Shown here one piece after another: positions 7,831 to 62,285 of a stretch of 64,000 bases of DNA. The position numbers and the translations under genes are program-made. Source of the stretch: Marsupella aquatica. Lineage: Eukaryota > Plantae > Marchantiophyta. The first letter of the stretch is position 1. Every line of letters begins with the position of its first letter. The stretch lies in NCBI GenBank assembly GCA_973895155.1, contig OZ316895.1, forward strand, positions 19,234,803-19,298,802, in the 5' to 3' direction. Under the pieces are notes generated by a model. That model saw nothing but the letters and a program-made list of their open reading frames with translations, was not told where the DNA came from and searched no databases.

Positions 7831-7847
7831 AGGGCACAGCGCCGTTT

Positions 7848-16880: not shown

Positions 16881-16895
16881 TTGCCCTCGCCTCGC

Positions 16896-26520: not shown

Positions 26521-26699
26521 ATCAATAAAGACCTCATCATGTGTATTCGCTTCAAAATATTTTATCAAGTGTGAATGTTATTCTTTCACTTTTGTACTTA
26601 ACAACATCTTTTACTTCATAACGTCTTTGAGTAATGACATATTTTGCTTATCGACTATATTGTACTTACAACATCGTTATCCTTAACCAAATTTTTTTC

Positions 26700-27050: not shown

Positions 27051-27051
27051 T

Positions 27052-27076
27052 GTGCAACGCACGGGTATTGAGCTAG
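27052..27076 (+). mobile_element. Helitron 3' terminus
   Basis: GTGCAACGCAC hairpin, then GGGTATTGAG-CTAG|T. Confidence 0.9.
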
Positions 27077-31858: not shown

Positions 31859-32746
31859 ACTATAATACTTAATCCTGTCCATTTTTGTTTCGTCTCTTTA
31901 CTAATTCACATTTGGGCAAGATTGATTCTAGATCGTCGAATCATATCATCATATTTTTCTGACCTTTGATTAGGAAAAATTGGGGAGTGTTGCACTTACT
32001 TGATCATATCTCTCTGACCATCAGGAAAAATGGAGGAGTGTTGCACTTGATTCTAGATCGTCAAATCATGTCATCATATTTTTCTGACATTTGATCAGGA
32101 AAAATGGGGAGTGTTGCACTTACTAGGGTCCTGCCTTGGCTGTACTCCAGGCCAGTAGAGTTTGTCATCCGCGGATGGCAAGAACTGTACCCTTGCCATA
32201 GGCCAGCCCTGTGTTCTTTGTTGCCACTTCACAAGGACAGTACCTAGGTGTACTCTCTCCCTGCATCTGGAGTTTCTGTACTAAACTGTCATTAATGAAT
32301 AGCAGGACACAAGGAAGCAATTCAGCAAAACAAAGGATGAGGTAGGTCTGATTTGCATTGAGGAGTGAAAGGAGGGGGGGGGGGGGGGGGTGTTGGGAGG
32401 AGAGCTTTAAATGCTCCCTCCCTTTGGGGGCACTTGATTACTGGGCCCAAGGCCCTATGCTGAAGGGGCGGGGAGCAATATAAGAGGGCACAAGGCCCTA
32501 GGGTAGGCATTCAGGTGCGAGCAGGGGCGAGGAGGGCCCAAAGCCCTATGCACGAGCCAGGAGGGTCCGAGGCCCTATGGAGGAGCATTTAGTGGGGAGG
32601 AGGTGGAGCCGGGCTCTCTTTGACATCTTTTGCTCACCTTGACATCTTTAATCACCTAAACATGTTTTGCTCACCTCAACATCATTTTTCTCATCGACAT
32701 CTTTATCACCTTGACATCTTCGAGCAACGCACGGGCATTGGGCTAG
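31859..32746 (+). mobile_element. Non-autonomous Helitron
   Basis: 3' end GCAACGCACGGGCATTGGG-CTAG|T closely matches the end at 27076 and is preceded by ACATCTT-type repeats; 5' end (A)CTATAATACTTAAT is approximate; internal direct repeats at 31920-32120. Confidence 0.7.
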
Positions 32747-33035
32747 TTTGAAATAAATCACAAGAACGACATTGTTGTAGTGAGCATCGTTTGGGTTAGA
32801 AGAAAACAAAACTGCAGTTAACTTGTAACTAGCGGATCCTCCCCCCCCTCTGTTTTTTCCATGTCCACCACCTCTGATAAACTAGATTGAGGTCAAACAT
32901 TGAGGTCAAAGCTTATTCTTTTCCTACTGTCAAATGTCTGCTCATTCCTACCTAGCCAAATATTCCAGAGTACTTGGTACAACATGCAGGCCTGAAGTCT
33001 GCTTGTAGTCCAGTGGATTCTAGTAGGGGGAGCAA

Positions 33036-40677: not shown

Positions 40678-42466
40678 ATGTCAACATCCACGAATTTGAT
40701 GGAGAAACTCTTATTTCAATCCCTAAGCATTGATAGCTTGAATTACTTGTCCTGGTTGCTAGATGTTGAAGCTCATCTAACCTCAAAGAACCTACAGGAT
40801 ACAGTCATAACCGACAATGGACTAACCCTCCAACATTTGCGCAGGCATTAATACTAATTAGACATCATCTGAGTGACTCCTTGAAGAGGCAGTACATGAA
40901 CGAATATAACCCGAGGGTCCTTTGGGAAGAACTCCAAGCACGCTTTGATCACACTTGCACCATATATCTGCCAGCAGCCAGACATGACTGGATCAATCTC
41001 AGAGTCCAAGATCATAAGACAATTGCAGACAACAATTGCGAATTATTCTGAATAGTATCACAATTGTGGCCACATAGTAAACAACGCAGAACAAATAGAG
41101 AAAACTCTATCCACCCTACATTCCACCAATCTCATTCTCTCCACCCAATACCGGAACATGCAATTTACTAGATACTCCGAGCTGATCGCCCATATGCTCC
41201 TGGCCGAGAAGCACCAATTATTGCTATTACATAACTCACAAAAGAGACCCCCCGGAACCCTTCCTCCAGTCACAAATCCAGAAACACACTATGCCACAAC
41301 ACAAAGAGGAGATGGGTCCTCTTACCGTGGCCGAGGAAGCTTCAGGGGGAGAAACTCATATAGAGGTCGTGGTAGCTCTTTCAGAGGACGCAGAGGCAGA
41401 AGTAACTCCTTCAGAGGCAGATCCAGAGGAAGATATCAAACAAATGGTGGTAACTCGAGAAACAATTGGCAATGAGACAACTACCAACCTCGAGCAAGGA
41501 CAAATCAACTGCAAAATGCTCCAAGAGATAAATACGAAAACCCCTCTACATATTTCCGTTGTGGCACTAAAGGGCACATCCAAAAATTCTGTCGTGCCCC
41601 TGTACACTTAGGTGCAATTATATAAGAATTTAAGCATTGCACAAAATGAACTAGAGACATATGGGACTTTCCTTGAATCTACATAAATAATACCTTCCAT
41701 AAATATGGTCATGCAAAATACCACACCTCACCTCAGCACAAAAGAAAACTTTTCCCACTACATAGTAGATATATAGTGGCACATTGCATTCTATTTTGAA
41801 ACACAAAGAATACTTCAAGCATATTACACCATCACAAAGGAAACTCACGACTATTATGGGCCAACACCAACTGGAAGAGGGATTTGGACCAGCATTAGTC
41901 ACTTTACCCCGTAAGAACAACGATTCAGGTGAAGTCTGCAATATACGCCCCAAAGGCAACAAGAAACCTACTGAGCTTCGGGGACATCCGAGCTAACAAT
42001 TTACACATCAAGACCGGTACCCAACATGGACAGGAAGTCTTGTATATCACTTCTGGGGAACCACCAAATGCAGAGATTAGAGAGACTTTGAGTGCATCAC
42101 CACCTGGTTGCTACACTACCAAAATTCATAGCTTCCTCACTGATGCACCCCAAGGCTCAATCACTGACATTTGGCATAGGAGATTGGGCCACCTTGGAAT
42201 GACAATGTTCCAGAAACTCATCAGAGAAACCCAAGGAATACCAGCATCGGTCCACCCTACGTCTATGCACGTCCCTTGCTTAGCTTGCTCACATGGCAAG
42301 TTAATAATTTGGCTCTCACCACCAACAACTGAATGCCACATCCCCAACTTCTTGGAACGCATACACGCCAACGTGTGCGGACCAATTGACACCCCAAGTG
42401 GCCCATTCCAATTTTTCATGGCTGTCATAGACGCATCCACAAAATGGTCTCAAATATCTCTGTTAT
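40678..42466 (+). pseudogene. Bianca-like gag, protease and integrase N-terminus (decayed)
   Basis: MSTSTNLMEKLLFQSLSIDSLNYLSW; RG-rich gag segment; RNLLSFGDIR; WHRRLGH...CLAC; RIHANVCGPI. Confidence 0.9.
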
Positions 42467-45400
42467 TGTCACGTCATCAGCCTTGGCCTTAACTCGGGCT
42501 TCAGCTTTAAACGGGCACCTCCTTCATAAATACGAGGGTTCGGGCAGGGAGGGAAGCGTGTAATGCACCTAATTCACGTAAACTGGCGCTAAGTGCGCCT
42601 ACTGTTAGATACGGACATCTCCTAGGTATGGTTTATGTTCCGCCGCCGGAACGTACCTTAGTCGATAACAGGATCGACCCCGGCTTAAGGACTTCTAAGC
42701 CTTCATGTTGTCCGCCTTTGATCCGGATTCAATGATACAGGTCCTCAACCCATGCTCGCAACCACATACCCGCAAGCTGCACCCCGTGCACGACTCGGGT
42801 AGTGCGTTCGGCCCGGCGTTGCCACCTATACACAAGATTCACACACACATACACGCGTACAAGCATACAATCTCGATTTACATGAAGGAAATAATGGGAA
42901 AGGATTTTACTACATAGGGGACATGTGCGTACACTTGGTTGACCCGACAGCTCCGAAATAAACAGGTTCAAGGCCCGACGAGCTTAGTCCTACCCCCTCC
43001 CCTTGGTACTCTTTCACTCCCAGAGGTCGGGACTCCCCGCGCATACCACGGATGTCCAACTTTGAGACTAAAACCCCCCCGCTGCCTCCACCAAGGGGTG
43101 CACTAAATACTAAGGGCCGGGGAACGGAGTGTCCTCCCGCCCAAAGATTTGCTGACTTAGGTCCTAACTAATCTGACTGTCAGGCCAAAAAACGGCTGTG
43201 TCTTATTAGAAGATCCTAATCTACGTAGGCTGGACAGCATGGCAGTGCTGCGGTAACTAAGGCAGGTGCTTGTCCCAATAGCCTGACTAGCTACTCCTAA
43301 CCCTATTCTATTCCTACTTCGCCACTAATGCCTGGCACGCTTGCCAGAGCTGCCCGAGTGGGAGCGGCCATCCCGCTGCTTACGAAGTCTGTCGTTGTCC
43401 GCCTTGAGGAGCTGGACCTGGTCCAGCAGAGATTCGTTCTCTCGCTTCGCCGCGTCTGTCTCCTCCGCTGCCTCCTGGCATGCCTCCTCCAGCTGCTGGG
43501 CATCGCTCGTCAGCTTGCCCGCCAGCTGGTCTTGCTTCTCAGCTTCGGTTTGGAGCCGTGCCACTTCGGCCTGTAGCGTGGCTATCTCCGTAGTGTCCCG
43601 CTGGGCCCGTTCCTCGGCCTCCTTCAGGTCCTTCTGCCAGATGACAATTTGATTCTTCAAACTGTCAATCTGGTTCCGGAGTCGTGCAATCTTGGCCTCG
43701 TTCCCAGCTTTGGCCTGCTCGGCTAGGGCGGTAAGGGCGTGTGCCTTTGCTAACAAATCATCGGCGGCTGCAACTTTGGGTTGTAGTTGCAGAAGCTCAG
43801 CCTCTTGAGCCGCAACTTCGTTCTTTAAGTATACGGACTCCACCCGGTACCGCTCTATCCTCTGAAGGGCCTTTGACTGGGCCCGACCTGCCTTTACTGC
43901 GGCAACTAACTCTTGATTGAAGAAATAGGCTACCTTTCGGGCCATGAACTCCCCGGTATCCCGGGCAATTTGATGAGAGAAATCTCCCAGAAGCCCGTTC
44001 AGAAATGTACCTGATATGAAGAGTTCCGGGTGGTCCAGGTTGTGCCTGTCCGGAGTTGGGCACGGGCAGACGTCAACAGGCGCGGGGGCCGGGGCAGTGA
44101 CATCCAGCCCTGGGGACGTAATGTTGGAAGGGGCTGGAGTATCCTTCGGCAGTAATGTCCGGTTCTCCGGAATAGCCACCGGTGGGTCTTTGGGAGACCC
44201 GGGCTCGAGTAAGACCTCCACCGTACCGACTTCTGTACTTAGCCCGGCCTGTTGGATCGCATCCACGGTTGCGATAACCGACCCATTCGGTACCTGGTTA
44301 CGACTATAGCTACTTGTGGGGTGGGTGAAGCTTGCGTGTCCGCTGGACTTTGGGCCTCGGGTTGGGGCCGTCTCTCCAAGGCCGGAAAAACCCACCTAGC
44401 TGGGACAAGCTTTGTAACGTTGACACGGGGAAGGGTTCGTCGATCAAACCGAGCGTACCACTCAAGAATGATCTCGATGTGGCTAGCAAAATACGCCTTC
44501 CCGCCAATGTACAGCGTCTTCCTTCGCCGCTCCATCTCTTCATGGAATTTCTTAGCAAAGTACGACGCCCACTTCCTAGGTCGATAGTTCTTGACCTGGA
44601 TAACCTGAGCGGCGGAGATCTCCCCCCGGGGTTCCATCATGTGGAGGGCGTACCTTTGGAACTCCAGTCGCTCAGCTATCTCGGGGATGAGGCAGGTCCT
44701 CATCACGAACCTGTTGTCCACTGCTCCTTCTGAGGGAAAACTCGAGGATTGGTACTTGGCTCCCTTGCCCCCGGGAGCCCGTGATTCGACTCGATGGTCA
44801 CCTTTGGGTAATCCGAAGATGATCTTGAGCCGTTCTTCCATGAGGGACATATTCCTTCCCCGCAGCCGAGTATGCTGACGTGCATCATCATAATTCTTGA
44901 TGAATTCTGTCATGTCCTCCCCGTAGTACCTGCAAGTGTTCCAGGGCAGGGCGGCGAGGTGCTCGAATCCTTGAGTCTTCAGGTACACCGCATGCTTGGG
45001 ATGGAGGATGTTCTTATGCACGTTTTCCCCCATGCGGTGCATTGTCACCTTGGCCACGGCTACCGTGGCCAATGGTGACCCGGATGCAATGGCGGGTTCC
45101 TTCCTCTTCTTCCCCCGTGACTGGCTCGGGGAAGGTGACACCTCCCCATCCTCTCGATCGGGCATAGGTAGTGCTACCGCCGTTAGTATTGGTCCCGGGG
45201 CGGCCACAGTCACCGTGTTGTCTGCTGGAGCCGCTCCTTGGGTCCAAGCATGGGGAGGGGACGATGTAGTGTCGGCCCCCTGAGTGTTTGCTCCTCTGGG
45301 TCGCCTGAGCAAGGGTGGGGTAGCCTCATCGTCGTCGCTAAGGTCCACAACGTTGATGATGGAGCGTACTTGTACTGCTGGTGGGGCGATCGGCGGTGGG

Positions 45401-46433
45401 GGTTGGCTAGGATGAGGCTGAGACTGAGACTGAAGTTGAGCCTGAGCCTGAGTCTGCATTGGTACGGGTACGGGTATGGGGTCCACTGGGCTGGCGCCGG
45501 TGGTTGCAGGTCTAGTTCCCATGAAGCTCTACAGGTGCTGGTAGAAGTTCTCCGAAGCAAGTGCGGATGACCTTGTCGAACGGGTAGTGCTGGACTCGCT
45601 GTTGATGATAGCCCAAACCTGAGCAGGGATGTGGTTGAAGTGATGTCGTTGCAAGTCGATCGTACCCGGGATATTGAAGACCTCGTCCAGAAGCCGAAGC
45701 AATGCTTCCCAGAAACTGATATATTTGTCTCCGTTGAAGAAGTACCCAGATACCTCTGCTAGTCGGTAAAGCTCGCTCTGAGACGGGTAGTCAAAGTTAA
45801 GGATGTAGTGGTGTCGTCCTGCTAGGCGGATGGCTCTCTCGTACTCGCATTCGATTTCGTATCGGCGCGGGTTGGCGTGTTTCAATGAGTCGGCCAAGTG
45901 TCTTCCGGTAGATAGGAACTGCGTCCAGAATCGAATGGCCAAACTGGAGAGGATCGTGTGCGACATTCAGAGGAGATAGTAGTGGCGACTTAGAGCAAAC
46001 GAGAGAGCTGGGGTCGAAGCTGGCGCGTGGACTGATGGACTGGTGCACTCCAAAGGGTCGGCTCCCTTTTTATACCTTGAGGGCTTGCCGATCCCCCGAT
46101 ATCTCCTCGTTGCCTATAGGCTGAACCGTTCACGCTTGTAGTGTACCGGCCACTCCGCCGGTCTGAGTCACCGTGTGTCAGTGGACGCCTCCCGAAGTTT
46201 GTTATACGGACCCGAGGGAGGGGCCCCTCCATGCTCGTAACCCGGGCGTGCAAATGGCGATGCGCCGCCAGCCCGAACATGAATTCCCCTTATTGACTAA
46301 TGATTTCCTACTCATAATGGCTACCTAAATACTGTCGTTATGCTAATCATAGCGGCCTAAGATACTCCTAACGCTCGTGCTAGGCACGGTTTAGACCGAA
46401 TTACTCATTACTCGCCGTACTGGCGGCGTCACA
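42467..46433 (-). mobile_element. Solo LTR, 3967 bp, protein-coding
   Basis: Minus-strand termini TGTGACG...ACGTGACA; TSD GTTAT at 42462-42466 and 46434-46438; splits copia integrase cleanly; no gag, pol, PBS or PPT inside. Confidence 0.92.
43325..45966 (-). pseudogene. LTR-embedded accessory ORF (about 880 codons reconstructed) with one stop and one frameshift
   Basis: ORFs 45966-45529 and 45522-44239 share a frame separated by TAG, then shift into 44395-43325 (coiled coil); several blocks align with the 1124-aa LTR protein. Confidence 0.85.
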
Positions 46434-46734
46434 GTTATCCACCCAAAACTTGGTCTTTTCCAGACTGCTAGCCCACATTCTAAAATTGAGAGCACAATTT
46501 CCTGAAAATTAGATCAAGACTCTCAGAGTTGACAGTGCAAGAGAATTTACCTCCAAAACGTTTTCAAGAAGATTTCTGCCAAGCTGTGGCATAGATGTCC
46601 AGTACCCGGTCCCCCATGTCCACTTCCAAAATGGGATTGTTGAATCCCTGATTAAACGCTTACTATGGCCTCTACTAATGCAGACAAACCTCCCAACAGC
46701 AGCCTGGGGTCATGCCATTCTTCACTCCGCTGCA
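46434..46734 (+). pseudogene. Copia integrase core fragment between the two insertions
   Basis: LRAQFPEN*IKTLRVDSAREFTSK...PHVHFQNGIVESLIKRL...WGHAILH. Confidence 0.9.
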
Positions 46735-49700
46735 TGTGATGCCTAGACAGGAATCACTCGGCCGGTTAAGTGGGTAAAGCAGGAAGGCACCCTAGGAACA
46801 CCTTAGTATAGGGACAAAACAAGGAAAATATAAACAATTAGGGGCAACCATGGAACCCGGGCCGAGGCCGGAGGTAAGGCTGAGGGTGAAAACCCGATTA
46901 GGGTTAGGGCGCGTTAAGCGTCGGCGGCTAGGAAGGATCAACGGGAAGAAGGACCGGCAGAGGAGAGGGGTAAGGAGCGCTTGCAGGAGATGGTGGCTCA
47001 TTTGCGAGCACGAACTAGGCAGACGACTACGGGAGGCCAACTACTGTTAGCTGCTTAGGCAAGCACTCGGGGAGAGAGTAGATACCGACGATCGACCTAA
47101 GGAGGGTATGAGCAACGTCAATCAAGTGGCACATTTCTGGGTATGCCTATTCGAACGGGCAACTGAGTACATCAAGACTTACGAGGACGAGGAATCAGAA
47201 AGGGCAGCTCGAGAATGGCAGGAGCTCGCTCGATTGTGGGAGCTGCAGAAGACGGCTTTCTTAGGAGGCGAACTCATCAAGGACGAGTTCCTGTGGACGC
47301 CTACTTCCAATCAACTCGACGATCTTCTCTTTTGCAAAGACAGCGTCGTCGGCATCCGAGAGGCCATCAAGAACTGCAACGACATACACTGGGAATTAAA
47401 GGGTAGCACGGAAAGGTGGACCCAGGCAACGGTGCTAGGAGAAACCTCCACGGCAGCAGAGATGAAGAGGAAGGGAGCCGTCAATGATGAAGCCACCCCG
47501 GCAAAAAGAACGAGGTCGGCGGCACCAAAGAAGCCAGCCGAGCAACAGAACAGGAGGCAGGGAGAAGCCGAAGAGGAGGAGGTCGATCCCATCAAGGCCA
47601 TTCCAACCAGGGATGACACCTGGAAGGGCTGGGCGGCAACCCTACCGGTGGAGGTGCAACTACATTTTGCACGGGAGGAGGATGCATGCTTTACGGCCAT
47701 GCAGACCAAGAAGTACCAAGGCTTCATGGCCGGATCCGGCTTGGAGGCCTTTGTAAGATTACCATGGCTGAAGCCGGAGGTACCGGAGTCAGACCTATTA
47801 GAATTCTTGGGGTCATGGGAACCCGAGACCAATTGCACGAGGATATATGGGAAGGATTTCTATCTTACTCCCAAGGTAATTGCCGAAGTGTTTGGCCTGC
47901 CGATAGGCAATAAGACCAAAGTTGATACCAGGAAGACCTTGCCTGACAAGGAGTTCCGGTCGTTCCCCGGGCCATCAACGAAGAATGGCTTCTTCCGGAA
48001 CACCTGCACCAACCCGCACATAGGAGAGATGATCGACTTCTTGCGGGTGACCATGCATTGTAACTTGCCGAGGGCAGAGATCGGCAAGGCACAGGTCTAT
48101 CTGGCAGAAAGGCCAGACCCAAGCCGGGACTACAACGGGTACCTCCTCAACCAATTGAAGAAGATCTTAAAGGAAGAGCAGCAGGTAATCGGCATGGGGA
48201 GCGTGTCGCGGCTGGGCTATCACATGCCGCTGTTGTGCCGGTATGCCAGAGGTCAGACTTTTGCCCCGGTACTTCCCCTGCAGGTAAGGGCACCCGAGGA
48301 AGCTCCAACGCCGAGGCCGTTGGCTGAGAAGCCTCAACCACCTGTTAGTCCTACGATCGAGCAGGTGTTTAGGCCCAAGAAGGAAGACTTGCCGATGCAG
48401 CAACCAGGCATGCACAGTCTGCTGAAACTACTGGAGAAAGAAAAGAAATCGGCATCGGCAACAACAACGGCAACGGCAACAATGCAGGACACTACTATAG
48501 AGGTAGGCCTACACCGGCTCACAAGAGAAAACCCCTTTGCTGGAGACAAGGAGAGAATCAGGCCGGAATCCAAGCCAGGTGTTCGAATGTACGTGGGAAC
48601 CTCAAGCTCCAAATCTGAGGCAGAATTGCCTGAAGCTCCTACCAACGAAGAGGAGAGGGAGAAGTCGGACGTCCAAGAGGTAGAGGAGGCAGTGGAGGAC
48701 TGCAGCCATGATAATTCCGGCTATGGGTCGGACCATCACGTTCCAGGAGTAAGGACCTGTGGCCGGTTTGTCCCCACACTTCCAAGGGTAGTGCGAGGGG
48801 ACCCCAACCAGCAGAGTAGCCCTGAGTCTCCCCCACCAGATGTTGCTCCCCCGAGCTTCAACGGCATAAAACAGACGGTGCAGGAATTTCAGGAGCGAAT
48901 CAAGCAGGAGGAGGAGGCCGCCCTAGCTAAGGAAAAGGATTTACCAGGAGGAGATTGGCCGGAGGACATCAGGCGGCTAGCCAAAAAAGGAAGCAAACCT
49001 CTAGCCACGATTGAAGAGATCCGCAGGACGGCTTGGGAGCAGAGGCCGCGATGGGCAATGCCGATCACTTCTACTTACTCCACCTACGCTAAGAATAGAG
49101 CCATGGAGTATGGTGAGATGTGTGGGGAACTTGCGCTCGGCATCTTTGGAGAGGAGTTGGAGGTAGGACCCTTTTTCCATAGGGAGCAGTTGGAGAAGCA
49201 CCAATTAGAAGAAGCGGTGGCTTTAGAGAGAAGCAAGAAGGACGAGGTCATTCGGCGGCTTAGGAGGATGGAAGCCGAGATTGAAGATCTAAGGGCGGCC
49301 AAGAAAGCCCAAGATGAACTGCGGATTAAACGACATGAGCTGAACATCATGCAGGGGCAGTTGGACACCGCGCAGGCTGATAATCAGAATATCAAGGATA
49401 AACTGACTCAGACGCAGGAAGAGTTGGCCGACACGATCAAAGAGAGGGAGAAGTGGAAGCAAGAGCTGAAGAATACAGAGGAGGCCCACATAACAGCCAA
49501 CAGCCGGGCCATGGCGGAGACCCAAAGAAAGGAATGGGCGTTGAAAGGGGAGCTCGAGAAAATCCGCGGAGCCCTTGAGCAGAAGGAGGCCGAGTTAGGG
49601 AAATCCTATCAAGGGATTATGGCGCTGCAGCAGGAGCTTGCATCCCTGACGGCCAACTTCAAGGCCGACCTAAGGGAGAAGGACGAGATGCTCGAACAGA

Positions 49701-51403
49701 CTTACGCCAAGATGAACCAGATGGAGTCTGTCATCATTGCAGAGCTCGACAAGGAGCTAAAAGCAACCCAGGAGGAGAGGACTACCTTGAAACAAGAACG
49801 AGAGGAAGCCCAGAAGGAACTAGAGGAGGCACGCAAGGACCTGGATGAGACCCAGGAGGAGTTGGAGGAAATCACGAGGAAGATGGAGAACCTCCAGCGG
49901 TGGGCCGACAACCAAACGGAGCGGCTGAAGAAACAAGCCGCAGTATTTAGGTGCTTGTCTTCATCAGGCCCAACTCCAATTGGGGCAACCAAGTTACCAG
50001 GAGTGGTACTGGCCGAAGAAAAAGCCGCGCCAACTGCACCAGTGCCGGAGGTAAGTGGGAAGGGGAAGGGACCAGCTGCCGAACCAGAAAAGAAGAAAAA
50101 GCGGAAACCTTCAGGGTCAAGGAGTAATCCGACTCCACAAGCCGTGGTGACCAAAGAGGTAGAACCAGCACCATCCTCTGACATGAATACGGCAATAGAT
50201 CCCGCTATGATCACAGGTAGGGATGGTGCGGCCCAAGCCGAACTACTCAGTAAGGAGGCCAGTATTCCAGATCCGCCTCTTGAGCAGGCCGGGGAGACCG
50301 TAGCCGAGGCTGAGGCCGTAACCGATTCTCGAGCCGATGCTGACGCCGATGGTGGACCCAGTCAGGCCGATGGAGAGTTGACTCAGTCAAGGGCAGGTAA
50401 TCTGTCAGGGAATGAGCCTACGGCAGTGGCTGAGGAGGAAGCGTTGGGGGCGTCCATTAAGGATCCACCACCGGTGTCGTGACGGTGCAAGGGCGCCGTT
50501 CCTTTTAGGGAGGGCGGACGTGGAGGGAGGAGGCGTGAGTGGGCAGGGCGGGCGCGGATCTCCACGTTTAGGATTAGGATCAGAACCAGGAGCGGCCCTG
50601 ACACTTAGCTTAGTGGGATTGCGGTCCCACTGGTAGAAGCAACACTTGTGCTCCTGCCTTGCTGTACATAGGTAGATTCGGGCAAGTAGATTACTGTTAA
50701 GTAGATTAGGCTTACGATGCAAAGAATGGCGGATCCACTACTAGGATAAGTACCTGGGCAGCGGGGAGCTCAGGGCCTCTTCTTTAGCAAGTTTTTAGTT
50801 TGCACCAGCCGGGCTGGGATCAAGTAGTACGAGAAGCTCTCGGTTAGTCATACAGTGACCCTTGTGTATATTCATGTTTCCTCATGCCTAAGAGCTGAAT
50901 AGAGTTGGCCTCACGGCTTAGTTCGCAGAACTTGTGTATGAGATGTACTGTTTGTATGGCAAGTGCATGGTATGACTCAGTCAGAATGAGTCATTTTGCT
51001 ATTTGTGTGTCGCATTAACTTGTGTGAAGAGTGCCCACATCAACAGAAGGAAGGAAAGTAAGCAGGGGAGTGAGAGTTGGATGTGTCGAGCTAAGAGAGG
51101 TCTTAGCGGCTTAACCAAGCCTATTGGGGATCATTCCGGCGGCGGAATCCAAACATACCTAACAAGACGGAGGGGAAGACAGGGGAAGACAGGGGAAGGC
51201 CTATATTAGGCCGGCTACGTATCTCATGACCCGATGAAGGATCTGTCCAGTATATGTGTGTAAAATGTTAATAGTAGTAGTAGAAGGTTAGCAGCGTCCC
51301 ATGCCGCTAAGCTGCGGAAACGGCCTCGCCAAGCACGAAACCTGCGGGAATCGGCTTGAGCTGGGGGGTTTCTTGGGTTTAGGGAGCCATGGGACACACC
51401 ACA
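46735..51403 (+). repeat. 5' LTR, 4669 bp
   Basis: TGTGATG...CACCACA; about 99% identical to 57617-62285 (roughly 40 substitutions counted by eye, no indels seen). Confidence 0.97.
47108..50482 (+). CDS. 1124-aa accessory protein of unknown function encoded inside the LTR
   Basis: Uninterrupted ORF; N-terminal helical block, LPW...EF...FGLP...C..P...F domain, disordered linker, long coiled coil, KKKKRK basic patch; homologues in two other LTRs in this window. Confidence 0.9.
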   Translation: MSNVNQVAHFWVCLFERATEYIKTYEDEESERAAREWQELARLWELQKTAFLGGELIKDEFLWTPTSNQLDDLLFCKDSVVGIREAIKNCNDIHWELKGSTERWTQATVLGETSTAAEMKRKGAVNDEATPAKRTRSAAPKKPAEQQNRRQGEAEEEEVDPIKAIPTRDDTWKGWAATLPVEVQLHFAREEDACFTAMQTKKYQGFMAGSGLEAFVRLPWLKPEVPESDLLEFLGSWEPETNCTRIYGKDFYLTPKVIAEVFGLPIGNKTKVDTRKTLPDKEFRSFPGPSTKNGFFRNTCTNPHIGEMIDFLRVTMHCNLPRAEIGKAQVYLAERPDPSRDYNGYLLNQLKKILKEEQQVIGMGSVSRLGYHMPLLCRYARGQTFAPVLPLQVRAPEEAPTPRPLAEKPQPPVSPTIEQVFRPKKEDLPMQQPGMHSLLKLLEKEKKSASATTTATATMQDTTIEVGLHRLTRENPFAGDKERIRPESKPGVRMYVGTSSSKSEAELPEAPTNEEEREKSDVQEVEEAVEDCSHDNSGYGSDHHVPGVRTCGRFVPTLPRVVRGDPNQQSSPESPPPDVAPPSFNGIKQTVQEFQERIKQEEEAALAKEKDLPGGDWPEDIRRLAKKGSKPLATIEEIRRTAWEQRPRWAMPITSTYSTYAKNRAMEYGEMCGELALGIFGEELEVGPFFHREQLEKHQLEEAVALERSKKDEVIRRLRRMEAEIEDLRAAKKAQDELRIKRHELNIMQGQLDTAQADNQNIKDKLTQTQEELADTIKEREKWKQELKNTEEAHITANSRAMAETQRKEWALKGELEKIRGALEQKEAELGKSYQGIMALQQELASLTANFKADLREKDEMLEQTYAKMNQMESVIIAELDKELKATQEERTTLKQEREEAQKELEEARKDLDETQEELEEITRKMENLQRWADNQTERLKKQAAVFRCLSSSGPTPIGATKLPGVVLAEEKAAPTAPVPEVSGKGKGPAAEPEKKKKRKPSGSRSNPTPQAVVTKEVEPAPSSDMNTAIDPAMITGRDGAAQAELLSKEASIPDPPLEQAGETVAEAEAVTDSRADADADGGPSQADGELTQSRAGNLSGNEPTAVAEEEALGASIKDPPPVS

Positions 51404-51407
51404 TTTT

Positions 51408-51425
51408 TGGCGCTAGATGGAGGGG
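51408..51425 (+). promoter_or_regulatory. Primer binding site
   Basis: TGGCGCTAGATGGAGGGG, 4 nt after the LTR end; TGG complements the tRNA CCA end; tRNA identity not assigned. Confidence 0.8.
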
Positions 51426-51472
51426 GCATTTCTTAAGCCGTGAGATATGAAGTTAGAACGGAAGCGTAGGTA

Positions 51473-54466
51473 ATGACTGACCTTACGCCGAGGGAAGAAA
51501 GAGTGATTCAACGGGAGAGAGCTCGACTGCAGCAGCTCGCCGGGTGGCATGATACACAGCGACTGAGAGGGGCAGAAAGAGCTGGTAGCTCCGAAACTGG
51601 AAGTGGCGTCGAAGAAGACATACCAGAAGAAGAGTCGGTAAGGAGAAGTGAGTCTCCAACTGACATGGGGGAACCAGAGGCACGGCCAGACGAGAGGCCA
51701 AGGACCAGATTGAGCCAGCGGTCGCGCATACATTACAAGGCATTTCATGGGAGAGGAGATGAGGATCCGGACGAATGGTTGGATGATTTCGAGAGAACCG
51801 CTGCAGCAAATGGAGAATCGGCCATCAAGATGCAGATTCTTCCCGGCCTGTTCAAGGGTGAGGCTAGGCCTTGGTACAGAGCATTAGATGTGGAAGATCA
51901 AGCCATCTGGGATATCTTCAAAACACTCTTTGTTAAGGAGTTTCGACCCATTGGAACTTCAGAACTAGCAGTGCTGAAGTTGGGACAACTTCGGTTCAAG
52001 GAGAACAAATCCTTCAGGAAGTTCTTGCAACGCTTTCAGAAACTGGTAAGATGTACAAAGACCAATGCATCTGAAGGTATGCAACTTCAATGGTTGGTGA
52101 ATGCTTTGCCACAGAAGATGAGTTTTGCAATTAGGAAGGAGAACCCGGAGACTTTAGCCGAAGCAATTAAGGATATTCAATTATACATTAATGCAGATAT
52201 CACAAGCCGGAAGAAACAGCTTAAGTCTGAGAGTTCCTCATCAGAGGAGGGATCACCCCATAAGAGAAAAGATAAGAAGAAGAAACATCCCAATAAGTCT
52301 AGAAGTGATAAGTCAAGCTCGGATAGTGGGAGTAGCAAGAGTGAGTCATCTTCTAGTTCTGAAGAAGAAAAAACTAGGAAAAGGAAGGGCAGAAGGAGAG
52401 GGAAGACGAAAGTCAAGATGGAAGCTAAGCCACCAGATAACATCGTAGCCCTTACCAAGCAACTTAAGGCTATCATTGCAGAGGTAAAACCAAAGAAGAA
52501 GGTAGTACAGGAGGATAGCTCTGTATGGTGTGCCTTATGTTATAAAACCGGACACCATAAAGATGCGTGTCCTAAGCTTAATACTAATCATGTTCGGCAT
52601 GTGGCCGAGATCAGACCATGTCAGGGAGAAGTAGAGTACTTTTTAGGAGATGCCGCTGATAGTGTTTTCGGCATCAGTGGGACTGGAGCACGAGACCTAT
52701 CCAACAGACCTGCATCTCTGTGGTCAGGGTTAAGGAACAATCCAGGAGAGATGTATCCTCGGATTATTCAGAACCCGTCAGTACCTCCTAGGCCGAATGT
52801 ACAAAGATTTGCGGCGTGCTATAATTGTGGTCAACCTGGCCATTTTGCTAGAGAATGCCCGAATGCACGCAAACAGGGTGATGGACAACCAGCTCAGCTA
52901 TGTATGGGATGCCGACAGGAAGGTCATATGCTAGGGCAATGTCCTACTTGGTTGGCAGGCCTGGCCGCAAATCATAAGCTTTTGCCGATCAAGATCTTAC
53001 CGCCAGGTACTACCCCCGGAGGAGTTCAAATCAACCACATCGAACTAGGATGGCAAGAGGATGCCGAGGCAGAGTTCGTACCATCTGCTGATGAGGCCGA
53101 AGCCCTATCAACCTTCTCAGAGGAGGATTTAGATCATGATTGCTACCGGGCCTCTACTCGATCTACCAGAAGGAAGGAAAGGTGGGATGGGCTGGCCAAA
53201 AATAAAGGGAAGGTTACGGAGGAAAGGATCGACTCTTCGTCAACATCAACAGAAGGAGAAGGGAGGGCTCCGGCAATACAGGTAAGCCATGAGCCCACCA
53301 GTGAAACCAATCCTTCACAAGATAGCGACTTCAATCGAGATCATCCTAAGTTGTTCTACCCCTCTGTTACGGCTAGTGTTAAGGAACAACTAAGAGAATT
53401 AGAAACCCTGGAGAATACCGAAGCCATTGCCAAGGATGTAAAACGAGCAAAAGCATTGTTTGCTTTGGAAGACCCAACAGCTGTGGAGACTAGCGTGGCA
53501 AAACTGGCCGAATCCAAGATGGAAACACCACCAGAAGAGAAGCCGATTGTTCCCTATGACCTGGCTAAAGATGTACTAGAATCTAGAGTCTCGGCAACAG
53601 TAGGTCAACTATTGAAAAATAGCCCGTACTTCCGGAAGCAATTAAGGAAGGCTATTCTCGGCAAGCCAAGATTACCCAAGGTAGCAACCAGATCCGACGT
53701 ACTAATGATAGAAGAAGATCAAGGAGCCCCAGCATTACCATTAATGATTCAAGGAGAATTATTACTACGGGTACCCATCAATGGAGGATCAGGGGTATGT
53801 ATTATGATTGATTCAACAGCAAAAGGGTGGGGTCTAACACCGGAGATGACTGGAAGAGTGTTGAACATGGCCAATGGATATCAGGTCATTCCCACGGGAG
53901 TGTTAACCGGCATCAAGACAGAGATAGGAGGTATCTTCTTTAGCATTAACTATGTAGTAATGAAGCCGGTAAATCCTACGTCATTCCGGCTATTGATTGG
54001 TAGGCCATGGCTGTACCTAGCCGAGGTAATAGAAGATTGGGGTAAAAAGCAGTTCACTTTCGGGACCCCCTCTATCACGGTATCCTGGGACACTAAGGAT
54101 GACCGTAGGAAAAGCATAAGGGAAGTAGATGGGTACGACAGTGGACTGGAGTCAGCCGATGAAGTACGTTGGTTAGAATGCCTCACTAACCTAACCGAAG
54201 AAGGAGTCTTTGGACCAGAGGTAGCCCCCAGCGGATTATGGCAAGAACCAATGGAAGGTGACTTGGAAGAAGAAGACGAAGAGGTCGAGGACTGCTTTAC
54301 AATAGAATCCACCTTTTTAGCTGCAATTCCGGAGGAAGTAAAGGATGTAGACCAATTGGATGAAACGGCTAAGTGGGGAGCAGTAGCAGGGACAGTGGAT
54401 TTTCTGCAGGCGTTGTGGCAGAGCCGACGGGGTCCACAACGCCATCGATCATCGGCAAGGAATTAA
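51473..54466 (+). CDS. gag: Gag-protease polyprotein, 997 aa
   Basis: FHGRGDEDPDEWLDDFE capsid start; three CX2CX4HX4C knuckles; protease with INGGSG (catalytic D replaced by N) and LLIGRPWL. Confidence 0.93.
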   Translation: MTDLTPREERVIQRERARLQQLAGWHDTQRLRGAERAGSSETGSGVEEDIPEEESVRRSESPTDMGEPEARPDERPRTRLSQRSRIHYKAFHGRGDEDPDEWLDDFERTAAANGESAIKMQILPGLFKGEARPWYRALDVEDQAIWDIFKTLFVKEFRPIGTSELAVLKLGQLRFKENKSFRKFLQRFQKLVRCTKTNASEGMQLQWLVNALPQKMSFAIRKENPETLAEAIKDIQLYINADITSRKKQLKSESSSSEEGSPHKRKDKKKKHPNKSRSDKSSSDSGSSKSESSSSSEEEKTRKRKGRRRGKTKVKMEAKPPDNIVALTKQLKAIIAEVKPKKKVVQEDSSVWCALCYKTGHHKDACPKLNTNHVRHVAEIRPCQGEVEYFLGDAADSVFGISGTGARDLSNRPASLWSGLRNNPGEMYPRIIQNPSVPPRPNVQRFAACYNCGQPGHFARECPNARKQGDGQPAQLCMGCRQEGHMLGQCPTWLAGLAANHKLLPIKILPPGTTPGGVQINHIELGWQEDAEAEFVPSADEAEALSTFSEEDLDHDCYRASTRSTRRKERWDGLAKNKGKVTEERIDSSSTSTEGEGRAPAIQVSHEPTSETNPSQDSDFNRDHPKLFYPSVTASVKEQLRELETLENTEAIAKDVKRAKALFALEDPTAVETSVAKLAESKMETPPEEKPIVPYDLAKDVLESRVSATVGQLLKNSPYFRKQLRKAILGKPRLPKVATRSDVLMIEEDQGAPALPLMIQGELLLRVPINGGSGVCIMIDSTAKGWGLTPEMTGRVLNMANGYQVIPTGVLTGIKTEIGGIFFSINYVVMKPVNPTSFRLLIGRPWLYLAEVIEDWGKKQFTFGTPSITVSWDTKDDRRKSIREVDGYDSGLESADEVRWLECLTNLTEEGVFGPEVAPSGLWQEPMEGDLEEEDEEVEDCFTIESTFLAAIPEEVKDVDQLDETAKWGAVAGTVDFLQALWQSRRGPQRHRSSARN
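54397..54456 (+). promoter_or_regulatory. Candidate -1 programmed ribosomal frameshift signal
   Basis: G GAT TTT in the gag frame, 5-nt spacer, perfect 10-bp stem (54409-54418 with 54434-54443), loop GCCGA pairing with TCGGC at 54452-54456; pol lies in the -1 frame. Confidence 0.7.
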
Positions 54467-57400
54467 ATACCAAGGGATCGGCATACAAGCCGATTACGAG
54501 GGCAGAACAAATTGAGGCCCTATTAGAAGCCAAGAGAGCACAGCGGCCTAACTCTCAGGAGCAAGAGGTGGATGAGATGGACAGACACGATCCAGAGCCA
54601 AGGCAGGAAGGGGAGCCGACCACTAATTCAAAACCGCATAGACCGGTAAGGGGACAATCTATGGACACCAAGGAAGGGACCGACTCGGCTAGTCCAGCCG
54701 AGATCCCAGTTTATGGAGGTATGAGATTAGAGAGACTGGAAGCCGAACTGGACCCGAATTTGAAGAAGCAGATTAATATGATCCAAGCACGGCAATATCG
54801 GAAGCTTGACTTAGGAGAGGGAAGAGAACTGAACTTAGGGAGAAACCTAGCACCTGAGCTCGAGAAAGAGATCAGTGACTTATTGATTGAATTTCAGGAT
54901 GTGTTTGCATGGAGTCACCAAGATCTAAAGGGAGTAGATCCAACACTAGGGGAACATCAAATTGATCTCATGTTAGGAGCCAAATCATTTCGACAACCAA
55001 TTCGAAGGATGAACCCGAAGTATTCCCTGCTGGTCAAAACAGAAATCGACAAACTAGTGGAAGCTGGATTCATCACTCCAGTCCTGCATTCAGACTGGGT
55101 GTCTCCAATTGTGATAGTTCCCAAGAAAGCTGGACCCGATGGTAAACCCAAGATCCGGGTTTGTCAGGATTACAGGAAGCTGAATGAAACAACATTAAAA
55201 GACCATTTTCCTTTACCGTTTACTGATATGGTACTAGACATGGTAGCCAGTCATGAACTATATTCATTCATGGATGGATACTCTGGTTATAACCAAATCA
55301 GGATTCGGCAGGAAGACCAAATCAAGACGGCCTTCATCACGGAATGGGGGATCTATGTCTTCAATCGTATGCCGTTTGGACTCTGCAACGCACCAGCTAT
55401 GTTCCAACGATTAATGGTGAACATTTTTCATGATTACTTGAGAAAGTTCATGGAAATCTTCATTGATGACTTTGCAGTATTCGCGAAGGCATCGAAACAT
55501 GCTAAATACCTCAGGAAAACCTTCATGAGATGTAGAGAGGTGGGTCTCAAGTTACACCCAGATAAATGTTTTTTTGCAGTAACCGAGGGGGTGCTCCTAG
55601 GTCACAAGGTATCAAGGAAGGGCATTGAGATTGACAAGGGTAAGCTAGCAGTATGGCTAGATATCATGCAACCTAAGAACATAAAGGATGTAAGATCCTT
55701 CTTGGGATGCATTGGTTACTATCGCCGGTTCATCAAGGATTTTGCCAAGCTAGCTTTACCATTAACCAATATGCTCAAGGCAGGAGCAGACTTCGAACCC
55801 ACACCCGAACGAGTCACAGCGGTGGTAGAATTGAAGCAGATGTTAGTAGAGGCCCCAGTCATGATAGCACCGGACTGGAACAAAGATTTTCATGTTTTTG
55901 TAGATGTCTCGGGCTTCTGTATTGGCTCAGTACTAAGTCAGTTGGATGAGAAAGGAAGGGACCATCCCATATACTTCGCAAGCCGTCAGCTTGCCGATGC
56001 CGAACGGAACTACTCTACCACGGAAAGAGAAGCATTAGGAGTCATTTATTCTTGTAAAAAGTTTAGGCATTATTTACTAGGGTACAAGGTAATCTTTCAT
56101 ACTGATCACGAAAGTTTGAAGTACCTAGTCAATAAGCCGGACCTTACAGGCAGAGTAGCAAGATGGATTTTGCTATTACAGGAGTTTGACTATGAGCTGA
56201 GGATCAAGCCGGGAAAGTTACATGCCAATGCCGACTTCTTTTCAAGGATCACAGGTAAACCTGCCACGGATTGCATCGATGATCGATTCCCCGATGAGGA
56301 GCTATTCGTTGTGGAAATAGCTGGTACATGGTACCCTGAGATTTTACAATTTCTCAGCACTTCCAGATTACAGCCAGGATTAAGCCGATAGCAAGCCGCA
56401 GTCTTTGTGCGGAAGGTCAGACAGTATCAGTGCATTAAAGGCATACTGCACAAGCATGGAATCAACGGCACGATTCAAAGATGTTTGGAAAAGAGAGAGG
56501 TAAAACGAGTCCTACGGGCCATGCATGGAGAGGAGGCCGGAGGACATTTTGCCCCAGTAACCACGTCTAAAAAGATATTAAATGCCGGTTACTGGTGGCC
56601 CACCTTGCACAAAGATGTCTATCAGTTTATCAAACAATGCGATCCTTGTCAACGAGCGGGAGGACCAAGGGCATCCACTACACCCTATTCTACCTCTGGC
56701 ACCATTCGAGAAGTGGGGTATTGATTACATTGGACCTCTGAAACCACTGACCCACCCTCGACGGAACAAGTACATAATCCTGGCTACGGATTATGCAACT
56801 AAATGGGTAGAGGCCAGACCAACAACGAAGGATGATGCAATTACTACGGCTAGATTCATGTATGAGCAGATCTTCACCAGGTATGGAGCACCCCTAGAAT
56901 TAGTTAGTGATAGAGGAACCCATTTTTTGAATGATATAATTAGTCGTTTAAATGAGCAGTATTTAGTTAAACATAGGCCTACTACTCCCTACCATCCAAA
57001 GGCAAACGGGTTGACAGAACGAGCAAACGGAATTATAGGAAAGATATTGAACAAGACAGTAGCTCAGAACAAACTCGATTGGGATGATAAATTGTTTGCT
57101 GCTGTTTTTGCTTACAATCTTGCCTATAAATCCACTACCGGTCATACACCCTTCTTCTTAACCTTTGGACAAGAAGCCCTGGTACCCATGCAACTTGAGA
57201 TACCGACATTTCAAGTTACAATTGAGGAAAGAGCCTCAGCGGAGGAGAGCCTAAAGGAGCGAGAATATAGGTTAGAAGCTTTAGAGGAAGCGAGAATGAT
57301 TTCAGCCGAGAGAGTAGAATATAGACAGAATATCATGAAGCAGCAGTATGATAAAAGGTTAAAAGTAGTTAGTATTCATACCGGTGATCTTGTGCTACTT

Positions 57401-57603
57401 TATGACAGTAGGTATAGTAGGTTTCCAGGAAAGCTTTACACTCGCTGGTTAGGACCCTTTAGAGTAACCATGATGTTCCCCAATGGCTCCGTACAATTGG
57501 CCAACATTACGGGAGAGGTATATCCAGTTCGCATCCATTATGACCGCCTCAAGAAATACTATATGGACGAAGATGAAGTTGTTCGCGAGGACGCTTCACA
57601 ATT

Positions 57604-57616
57604 AAGTGGGGAGCTA
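57604..57616 (+). promoter_or_regulatory. Polypurine tract overlapping the last integrase codons
   Basis: AAGTGGGGAG-CTA directly before the 3' LTR TG. Confidence 0.85.
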
Positions 57617-60600
57617 TGTGATGCCTAGACAGGAATCACTCGGCCGGTTAAGTGGGTAAAGCAGGAAGGCACCCTAGGAACACCTTAGTATAGGGACAAA
57701 ACAAGGAAAATATAAACAATTAGGGGCAACCATGGAACCCGGGCCGAGGCCGGAGGTAAGGCTGAGGGTGAAAACCCGATTAGGGTTAGGGCGCGTTAAG
57801 CGTCGGCGGCTAGGAAGGATCAACGGGAAGAAGGACCGGCAGAGGAGAGGGGTAAGGAGCGCTTGCAGGAGATGGTGGCTCATTTGCGAGCACGAACTAG
57901 GCAGACGACTACGGGAGGCCAACTACTGTCAGCTGCTTAGGCAAGCACTCGGGGAGAGAGTAGATACCGACGATCGACCTAAGGAGGGTATGAGCAACGT
58001 CAATCAAGCGACACATTTCTGGGGATGCCTGTTCGAACGGGCAACTGAGTACATCAAGACTTACGAGGACGAGGAATCAGAAAGGGCAGCTCGAGAACGG
58101 CAGGAGCTCGCTCGATTGTGGGAGCTGCAGAAGACGGCTTTCTTAGGAGGCGAACTCATCAAGGACGAGTTCCTGTGGACACCTACTTCCAATCAACTCG
58201 ACGATCTTCTGTTTTGCAAAGACAGCGTCGTCGGCATCCGAGAGGCCATCAAGAACTGCAACGACATACACTGGGAATTAAAGGGTAGCACGGAAAGGTG
58301 GACCCAGGCAACGGTGCTAGGAGAAACCTCCACGGCAGCAGAGATGAAGAGGAAGGGAGCCATCAACGATGAAGCCACCCCGGCAAAAAGAACGAGGTCG
58401 GCGGCACCAAAGAAGCCAGCCGAGCAGCAGAACAGGAGGCAGGGAGAAGCCGAAGAGGAGGAGGTCGATCCCATCAAGGCCATTCCAACCAGGGATGACA
58501 CCTGGAAGGGCTGGGCGGCAACCCTACCGGTGGAGGTGCAACTACATTTTGCACGGGAGGAGGATGCATGCTTTACGGCCATGCAGACCAAGAAGTACCA
58601 AGGCTTCATGGCCGGATCCGGCTTGGAGGCCTTTGTAAGATTACCATGGCTGAAGCCGGAGGTACCGGAGTCAGACCTATTAGAATTCGTGGGGTCATGG
58701 GAACCCGAGACCAATTGCACGAGGATATATGGGAAGGATTTCTATCTTACTCCCAAGGTAATTGCCGAAGTGTTTGGCCTGCCGATAGGCAATAAGACCA
58801 AAGTTGATACCAGGAAGACCTTGCCTGACAAAGAGTTCCGGTCGTTCCCCGGGCCATCAACGAAGAATGGCTTCTTCCGGAACACCTGCACCAACCCGCA
58901 CATAGGAGAGATGATCGACTTCTTGCGGGTGACCATGCATTGTAACTTGCTGAGGGCAGAGATCGGCAGGGCATAGGTCTATCTGGCAGAAAGGCCAGAC
59001 CCAAGCCGGGACTACAACGGGTACCTCCTCAACCAATTGAAGAAGATCTTAAAGGAGGAGCAGCAGGTAATCGGCATGGGGAGCGTGTCACGGCTGGGCT
59101 ATCACATGCCGCTGTTGTGCCGGTATGCCAGAGGTCAGACTTTTGCCCCGGTACTTCCCCTGCAGGTAAGGGCACCCGAGGAAGCTCCAACGCCGAGGCC
59201 GTTGGCTGAGAAGCCTCAACCACCTGTTAGTCCTACGATCGAGCAGGTGTTTAGGCCCAGGAAGGAAGACTTGCCGATGCAGCAACCAGGCATGCACAGT
59301 CTGCTGAAACTACTGGAGAAAGAAAAGAAATCGGCATCGGCAACAACAACGGCAACGGCAACAATGCAGGACACTACTACAGAGGTAGGCCTACACCGGC
59401 TCACAAGAGAAAACCCCTTTGCTGGAGACAAGGAGAGAATCAGGCCGGAATCCAAGCCAGGTGTTCGAATGTACGTGGGAACCTCAAGCTCCGAATCTGA
59501 GGCAGAATTGCCTGAAGCTCCTACCAACGAAGAGGAGAGGGAGAAGCCGGACGTCCAAGAGGTAGAGGAGGCAGTGGAGGACTGCAGCCATGATAATTCC
59601 GGCTATGGGTCGGACCATCACGTTCCAGGAGTAAGGACCTGTGGCCGGTTTGTCCCCACACTTCCAAGGGTAGTGCGAGGGGACCCCAACCAGCAGAGTA
59701 GCCCTGAGTCTCCCCCACCAGATGTTGCTCCCCCGAGCTTCGACGGCATAAAACAGACGGTGCAGGAATTTCAGGAGCGAATCAAGCAGGAGGAGGAGGC
59801 CGCCCTGGCTAAGGAAAATGATTTACCAGGAGGAGATTGGCCGGAGGACATCAGGCGGCTAGCCAAAAAAGGAAGCAAACCTCTAGCCACGATTGAAGAG
59901 ATCCGCAGGACGGCTTGGGAGCAGAGGCCGCGATGGGCAATGCCGATCACTTCTACTTACTCCACCTACGCTAAGAATAGAGCCATGGAGTATGGTGAGA
60001 TGTGTGGGGAACTTGCGCTCGGCATCTTTGGAGAGGAGTTGGAGGTAGGACCCTTTTTCCATAGGGAGCAGTTGGAGAAGCACCAATTAGAAGAAGCGGT
60101 GGCTTTAGAGAGAAGCAAGAAGGACGAGGTCATTCGGCGGCTTAGGAGGATGGAAGCCGAGATTGAAGATCTAGGGGCGGCCAAGAAAGCCCAAGATGAA
60201 CTGCGGATTAAACGACATGAGCTGAACATCATGCAGGGGCAGTTGGACACCGCGCAGGCTGATAATCAGAATATCAAGGATAAACTGACTCAGACACAGG
60301 AAGAGTTGGCCGACACGATCAAAGAGAGGGAGAAGTGGAAGCAAGAGCTGAAGAATACAGAGGAGGCCCACATAACAGCCAACAGCCGGGCCATGGCGGA
60401 GACCCAAAGAAAGGAATGGGCGTTGAAAGGGGAGCTCGAGAAAATCCGCGGAGCCCTTGAGCAGAAGGAGGCCGAGTTAGGGAAATCCTATCAAGGGATT
60501 ATGGCGCTGCAGCAGGAGCTTGCGTCCCTGACGGCCAGCTTCAAGGCCGACCTAAGGGAGAAGGACGAGATGCTCGAACAGACTTACGCCAAGATGAACC

Positions 60601-62285
60601 AGATGGAGTCTGTCATCATTGCAGAGCTCGACAAGGAGCTAAAAGCAACCCAGGAGGAGAGGACTACCTTGAAACAAGAACGGGAGGAAGCCCAGAAGGA
60701 ACTAGAGGAGGCACGCAAGGACCTGGATGAGACCCAGGAGGAGTTGGAGGAAATCACGAGGAAGATGGAGAACCTCCAGCGGCGGGCCGACAACCAAACG
60801 GAGCGGCTGAAGAAACAAGCCGCAGTATTTAGGTGCTTGTCTTCATCAGGCCCAACTCCAATTGGGGCAACCAAGTTACCAGGAGTGGTACTGGCCGAAG
60901 AAAAAGCCGCGCCAACTGCACCAGTGCCGGAGGTAAGTGGGAAGGGGAAGGGACCAGCTGCCGAACCAGAAAAGAAGAAAAAGCGGAAACCTTCAGGGTC
61001 AAGGAGTAATCCGACTCCACAAGCCGTGGTGACCAAAGAGGTAGAACCAGCACCATCCTCTGACATGAATACGGCAATAGATCCCGCTATGATCACAGGT
61101 AGGGATGGTGCGGCCCAAGCCGAACTACTCAGTAAGGAGGCCAGTATTCCAGATCCGCCTCTTGAGCAGGCCGGGGAGACCGTAGCCGAGGCTGAGGCCA
61201 TAACCGATTCTCGAGCCGATGCCGACGCCGATGGTGGACCCAGTCAGGCCGATGGAGAGTTGACTCAGTCAAGGGCAGGTAATCTGTCAGGGAATGAGCC
61301 TACGGCAGTGGCTGAGGAGGAAGCGTTGGGGGCGTCCATTAAGGATCCACCACCGGTGTCGTGACGGTGCAAGGGCGCCGTTCCTTTTAGGGAGGGCGGA
61401 CGTGGAGGGAGGAGGCGTGAGTGGGCAGGGCGGGCGCGGATCTCCACGTTTAGGATTAGGATCAGAACCAGGAGCGGCCCTGACACTTAGCTTAGTGGGA
61501 TTGCGGTCCCACTGGTAGGAGCAACACTTGTGCTCCTGCCTTGCTGTACATAGGTAGATTCGGGCAAGTAGATTACTGTTAAGTAGATTAGGCTTATGAT
61601 GCAAAGAATGGCGGATCCACTACCAGGATAAGTACCTGGGCAGCGGGGAGCTCAGGGCCTCTTCTTTAGCAAGTTTTTAGTTTGCACCAGCCGGGCTGGG
61701 ATCAAGTAGTACGAGAAGCTCTCGGTTAGTCATACAGTGACCCTTGTGTATATTCATGTTTCCTCATGCCTAAGAGCTGAATAGAGTTGGCCTCACGGCT
61801 TAGTTCGCAGAACTTGTGTATGAGATGTACTGTTTGTATGGCAAGTGCATGGTATGACTCAGTCAGAATGAGTCATTTTGCTATTTGTGTGTCGCATTAA
61901 CTTGTGTGAAGAGTGCCCACATCAACAGAAGGAAGGAAAGTAAGCAGGGGAGTGAGAATTGGATGTGTCGAGCTAAGAGAGGTCTTAGCGGCTTAACCAA
62001 GCCTATTGGGGATCATTCCGGCGGCGGAATCCAAACATACCTAACAAGACGGAGGGGAAGACAGGGGAAGACAGGGGAAGGCCTATATTAGGCCGGCTAC
62101 GTATCTCATGACCCGATGAAGGATCTGTCCAGTATATGTGTGTAAAATGTTAATAGTAGTAGTAGAAGGTTAGCAGCGTCCCATGCCGCTAAGCCGCGGA
62201 AACGGCCTCGCCAAGCACGAAACCTGCGGGAATCGGCTTGAGCTGGGGGGTTTCTTGGGTTTAGGGAGCCATGGGATGCACCACA
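57617..62285 (+). repeat. 3' LTR, 4669 bp
   Basis: Direct repeat of 46735-51403, followed by TSD CTGCA. Confidence 0.97.
57990..61364 (+). pseudogene. 3'-LTR copy of the accessory ORF with one nonsense codon
   Basis: TAG at 58974-58976 where the 5' copy has CAG (48092-48094); the frame is open upstream to ATG 57732. Confidence 0.9.

Follow-up and report, generated by a model that had tools for sequence, protein, structure and literature searches.

In a 64,000-nucleotide window of the liverwort Marsupella aquatica (contig OZ316895.1, positions 19,234,803 to 19,298,802; all positions below are those of the window) a unit of 3967 bp lies at 42467-46433 that is very probably a solo long terminal repeat (LTR) of a Ty3/gypsy retrotransposon and that encloses a broken accessory gene. 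The formation of a solo LTR is usually regarded as the end of an element's coding capacity; a gene that is borne by the LTR leaves a gene copy instead. Taken in full, our reading is that of a minus-oriented Ty3/gypsy solo LTR, the broken gene of which likely specifies a nuclear, sequence-specific DNA-binding protein of predicted VANC/PMD-type fold that would act against silencing of its family, and we hold this complete reading to be about evenly poised between right and wrong.

Insertion and ends of the unit

The insertion is defined by the following features.

42462-42466, plus strand: target site duplication (TSD) GTTAT, left copy, also at the empty-site joint in contigs
42467-46433, minus strand: putative solo LTR, 3967 bp, 5' end TGTGACGCC at 46433 and 3' end CGTGACA at 42467
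46434-46438, plus strand: TSD GTTAT, right copy, from the junction sequence and the empty-site joint
40140-64000, plus strand: host Ty1/copia element, its integrase hit by both insertions; 5' limit read by eye

An earlier note on this DNA had described a unit of this length that starts with TG, ends with CA and is flanked on both sides by GTTAT. The junctions (GTTAT/TGTCAC at 42462-42472 on the left, GTCACA/GTTAT at 46428-46438 on the right) bear this out, as do contigs with an empty site: in three of four public runs (X2, X3 and X4) contigs of other Copia copies join 42461 to 46434, skipping 3972 (i.e. 3967+5) nt with five shared letters, and the host integrase frame continues across the unit (..SQISLL / LSTQNL..). 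Because other Copia copies show the uninterrupted joint, the ends and the TSD are real and not due to chance, and insertion of the unit into a Copia integrase created a TSD of 5 bp. A second, related gypsy LTR family entered the same integrase 301 bp further on (at 46735).

The unit is a repeat, with 4,834-12,129 contig records per run on its 4.5-kb stretch, and its end is sharp, in that in all four runs 4-8 contigs per run exit at 42465-42467 into differing flanks. One X3 contig runs 17 letters beyond 42467 at a depth of 492, versus 31-42 for apparently single-locus contigs of that run, which suggests internal sequence that is shared within the unit's family. A Pfam scan of the three pieces of its open reading frame (ORF) gave no gag or pol match, as the earlier note had it, and no internal LTR pair or direct repeats, primer binding site (PBS) or polypurine tract (PPT) was found within the unit.

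A neighbouring element as the reference for the LTR

The reference is a full-length gypsy element next to the unit, to which the following features relate.

46735-62285, plus strand: Ty3/gypsy with gag, protease, reverse transcriptase (RT), ribonuclease H and integrase, in this order; TSD CTGCA
46735-51403 and 57617-62285, plus strand: its LTRs, 4669 bp each, with 40 differences
47108-50482, plus strand: homologous ORF, 1124 aa, inside the 5' LTR; the copy in the 3' LTR has a stop at codon 329
42620-42701, minus strand: conserved 3' element of the unit with TTCCGGCGGCGGAA, common to both neighbour LTRs and to the unit at 16896-19276
16896-19276, plus strand: ORF-less TSD-bounded unit, 2381 bp, TSD CTCGC, with termini and 3' motif as in the unit at 42467-46433

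The neighbour carries a PBS-like TGGCGC.. after a 4-nt spacer (which we take to correspond to tRNA-Asn) and a PPT right before 57617 that overlaps the end of the integrase, and its homologous ORF is contained fully in both LTRs, which proves that this protein family can lie wholly within an LTR. From an earlier ATG the ORF could be extended upstream, in frame, by an arginine-rich stretch (46850-47107 and 57732-57989). This stretch is open in the 3' LTR, whereas a stop at 47048-47050 interrupts it in the 5' LTR; the homologues begin at the later ATG.

On its minus strand the unit begins with TGTGACGCC where the neighbour LTR starts with TGTGATGCC, its ATG lies 467 bp inwards (373 bp in the neighbour LTR), its ORF stops 858 bp from the end (921 bp), and TTCCGGCGGCGGAA, followed by a short conserved tail, sits 185 bp from the 3' end (270 bp). 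This 14-mer occurs exactly four times in the window. The earlier note had seen no obvious nucleotide similarity in the coding DNA, and this holds, but the common non-coding motif near the 3' end had been missed. Unit and neighbour LTR are homologous and collinear, yet represent different families rather than one sequence. The termini, the position and strand of the ORF and the 3' motif thereby give good, albeit indirect, support to the claim of a solo LTR with an LTR-borne accessory gene, and we are highly confident that the unit is a solo LTR from which internal gag-pol was lost by LTR-LTR recombination. In the case of the neighbour, the LTRs that contain the ORF family are those of a complete gypsy element, and the same would hold for the unit's own family.

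Alternatively, the unit might be a stand-alone non-autonomous single-LTR-like element, mobilised by the enzymes of related gypsy elements and repaying them with its accessory protein. The abundance and diversity of the family apparent in the contig records would suit such an element, as would the facts that gag-pol was not seen flanking the family and that a PBS is not readable past the unit end. We nevertheless regard it as improbable, since the termini, the motif and the ORF layout match the proven LTR of the neighbour, the deep X3 contig past the end is as expected of a shared internal region, and the unit lacks the direct repeats, PBS or PPT for reverse transcription of its own.

The 2381-bp unit has the fourth TTCCGGCGGCGGAA site and two further collinear blocks, without such an ORF. 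A tandem array with a 26-bp repeat, located at about 17226-17399, occurs in this unit only. It is probably an ORF-less solo LTR, and possibly a non-coding passenger LTR.

The accessory protein and its family

As the earlier note had claimed, an ORF of about 880 codons can be reconstructed in the unit (minus strand, 45966 to 43325). It consists of three pieces, the first of which ends at a stop codon in frame (45529-45531) and the second at a frameshift that falls somewhere from about 44382 to 44239, and the unit's own copy likely no longer makes the protein. The sequence around the in-frame TAG resembles a splice acceptor, and some 95 nt upstream of it there is a donor-like site (45529-45625, minus strand), so that what looks like a lesion may instead be an intron.

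45532-45966, minus strand: ORF piece 1, a family-conserved N-terminal domain of helices, about 115 aa (E 1e-13 to homologue P0036), without a clear fold match
44395-45030, minus strand: core domain, 212 aa, isoelectric point 9.9, in ORF piece 2 (44239-45528), predicted VANC21-like fold
43325-44395, minus strand: ORF piece 3, past the frameshift, with linker, coiled coil and C-terminal basic KRAR patch (tblastn with P0036, E 7e-10)

The blocks that had been aligned earlier by eye between this ORF and the neighbour's 1124-aa protein were of unequal value. Those of the core are significant (BLASTP, 26% over 185 aa, E 8e-17; the core-block score was reached by none of 300 shuffles). The N-terminal blocks are not significant pairwise (36 of 300 shuffles reach their score), but a profile of five N-terminal domains aligns end to end with neighbour residues 1-100 (rank 2 of 501), placing TPTSNQL of the neighbour in another register than the earlier note did. 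The ARDTGE/AMEYGE block has no significance by itself (46 of 300 shuffles), and the entire C-terminal piece matches the neighbour at E 0.004, biased by the coiled coil.

Among 1.84 billion representatives 34 homologues were found. Of 20 homologue representatives checked, six bear a species name, in all cases that of the liverwort Calypogeia fissa; a further cluster and a further representative have no title other than 'hypothetical protein'. P0036 (906 aa) matches all three pieces of the unit's ORF, in order, and has the C-terminal KRAR patch in common with it. The layout of the family is that of an N-terminal helical domain, a linker, a basic core, a second linker and a coiled coil.

The core of the unit's protein has a predicted VANC21-like fold, and the sole solved structure that matches it is that of the transposon anti-silencing factor VANC21 bound to DNA (PDB 9lnj/9lnk). 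On this prediction, a core fold related to VANC21/DUF1985/PMD is likely. At the sequence level, neither a DUF1985 nor a PMD (PF10536) match came out of Pfam scans that covered the pieces of the unit's ORF, the ORF of the neighbour and 37 homologues. The family profile A1 does not retrieve VANC21 from the PDB sequences at E<=1, and the one lead to PMD is an Atlas match, scored 0.89, to a cluster in which 14% of the members carry PMD. By prediction, then, the family behaves as a VANC/PMD-fold accessory factor, yet by sequence it qualifies as neither VANC nor PMD. That the ORF encodes an env-like or membrane protein, or that the similarity to VANC reflects a chance arrangement of helices, appears quite unlikely to us; a transmembrane helix, as looked for in an env-like protein, is absent from the prediction on the unit's ORF.

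A second gypsy element in the window contains a remnant of the same core.

7848-8916, plus strand: second gypsy, with PPT-like tract, TG at 7861 directly after the integrase, and decayed core homologue (by profile ranks)

The decayed core begins (ATG) 407 bp beyond the TG; its piece at 8512-8916 ranks first of 501 (16.5 bits versus 6.0 for the best shuffle) and that at 8268-8522 ranks 16. The RT of this element is identical to that of the neighbour at 162 of 258 aligned columns. We infer an LTR of the second gypsy at this place; its end was not found, nor was the element's 5' LTR within the window. The stretch 5020-10512 as a whole holds this second, decayed gypsy, which is of the same lineage, and an extra 372-aa frame (9394-10512) after the core homologue that has no convincing Pfam match.

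Candidate promoters and proposed mechanism

Two TATA-like boxes are of relevance for the placement of the ORF within the LTR.

46068-46074, minus strand: TATAAAA, candidate ORF promoter (a consensus match only), some 100 nt before the ATG
43103-43111, minus strand: second TATA-like box, 3' of the ORF stop, candidate main LTR promoter, aligned with TATATAG of the unit at 16896-19276

The block around the second box is common to both units (46 nt, 78% identical). Because this box is taken as the main LTR promoter, the ORF would be placed in U3, as expected had the PPT moved to a position upstream of a 3' accessory ORF. Judging from the two boxes, we lean slightly towards an ORF in U3 that has its own TATA and ends at the LTR poly(A) site, so that a solo LTR with an intact ORF could be transcribed on its own, from promoter through ORF to poly(A) site. 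Placement in R/U5, the ORF then deriving from a 5' ORF like that of Ogre, has almost the same plausibility.

In the proposed sequence of events, a Ty3/gypsy element with a complete accessory gene in its 4-kb LTR, and hence with the ORF present twice in each full-length copy, would have inserted into the Copia integrase, and LTR-LTR recombination would then have removed gag-pol and left a single LTR with the gene. VANC21 recognises a short motif within the element that encodes it and takes methylation off (PMC5735166). By analogy, the protein may oligomerise via its coiled coil, bind short motifs in its own element and oppose DNA methylation or Polycomb, a proposal to which we give a little less than an even chance.

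Several observations speak against such protection from silencing. The unit's solo copy of the ORF is broken twice, the two ORF copies of the neighbour diverged neutrally, and the mutations between the neighbour LTRs are mainly in CG/CHG context (28 of the 36 transitions). An amplified target motif was not found, in that no 8-mer occurs more than twice in the non-coding parts of the unit or more than three times in those of the neighbour. As regards the solo LTR and the deep X3 contig, the loose ends of contigs past 42467 are mixtures that do not read as a PBS and are arguably purine-rich (plus strand).

The same solo LTR and the same fold could also go with a protein that, in place of anti-silencing, serves some other nuclear step in the life of the element: it might activate transcription, help unspliced RNA out of the nucleus, act in nuclear import or tether integration. 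A fold in common says nothing on function; regulatory roles of this sort have been proposed for plant accessory ORFs (PMC7264820), and proteins with the PMD fold work in silencing and against Polycomb (PMC5418596; bioRxiv 2024.09.27.615353). In addition, the hairpin motif conserved near the 3' end could serve as a target in RNA or in DNA, and the mutation pattern suggests that the LTRs were methylated. As the only matching solved structure is that of a DNA-bound anti-silencing factor and VANC21 likewise combines a basic core with a coiled coil, we judge such other roles less likely, at somewhat under one chance in three.

At its widest, the anti-silencing reading would imply that a liverwort gypsy lineage moved a VANC-like gene into its LTR, such that LTR-LTR recombination, by which the host clears its elements, would make each deleted element a self-contained gene that in trans keeps the rest of the family and its ORF-less passengers (like that at 16896-19276) free of silencing. 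We consider this a rather speculative extension; if true, a pre-angiosperm gypsy protein would become a candidate ancestor of the PMD/MAIN/VANC clan.

Relation to known systems

VANC21 is encoded by VANDAL21, a Mutator-like DNA transposon of Arabidopsis, and contains DUF1985, whereas the carrier here is an LTR retrotransposon and the gene lies inside the LTR. The LTR-borne protein shares about 10% identity with VANC21, lacks a Pfam DUF1985 match and has an additional N-terminal domain. VANC is described as dicot-specific and traced to the capture of MAIN in dicots (PMC13547354), whereas the named relatives here are from a liverwort.

The PMD of Ogre, the ORF-1 of Athila and the Transposase_28 of Retand are likewise gypsy-borne accessory ORFs with basic patches and a coiled coil, and are common in these lineages, the LTRs of which can be about 5 kb long (PMC6317226). 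In structure, PMD is similar to VANC (bioRxiv 2024.09.27.615353; PMC13547354), and with PMD resembling DUF1985, the unit's protein and the PMD-type gypsy ORFs probably belong to one structural clan. Plant extra ORFs are described in the internal region (PMC7264820, PMC11963269, PMC11728184), those of Ogre, Athila and Retand either before gag or in the interval from pol to the 3' LTR (PMC7264820, PMC6317226, PMC11963269). A solo LTR no longer has them; the unit-type ORF, in contrast, lies in the LTR, is present twice per element, is kept in solo LTRs and has no Pfam match.

The Sag protein of mouse mammary tumour virus (MMTV) measures about 320 aa. Its gene is likewise a whole ORF in an LTR, transcribable from U3 promoters (PMC12789967), but belongs to a vertebrate retrovirus and encodes an unrelated membrane protein; the ORFs here have 880-1124 codons, and their U3 placement is deduced. 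In the text that it covered, a full-text literature search returned neither a plant LTR with an ORF in it nor a liverwort retrotransposon with a VANC-like protein, with the limit that REXdb supplements could hold such cases. The arrangement is real and probably undescribed, and the accessory gene itself of a known kind.

The gypsy-encoded PMD-A has been surveyed in angiosperms, and the origin of PMD in gypsy or host genes was left 'fully open' (PMC5418596), a question on which a VANC-like predicted fold in several diverged liverwort gypsy families bears. Via the one solved anti-silencing protein, the family also offers a testable function for plant accessory ORFs, the role of which has been called unknown (PMC7264820); self-directed epigenetic modulation by ORFs of LTR elements is described as uninvestigated for Tork and Athila (PMC12844716). 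Sequence-specific anti-silencing proteins have been proposed as epigenome-editing tools (PMC5735166), and the LTR-borne family is large and untapped.

Other elements in the window

A Helitron at 21344-27091 encodes Rep and PIF1 domains, contains tandem arrays of 166 bp and 35 bp and has an end of the hairpin-CTAG type, and a similar second Helitron 3' end is found near 32756 (32623-32760). The stretches 2170-2771 and 16264-16883 form a 97% identical duplication of the 3' part of an RT region like that of long interspersed nuclear elements (ORF 2292-3767, minus strand). A 181-bp tandem unit occurs in inverted orientation at 11-241 and 1462-2004, flanking a 1.3-kb spacer.
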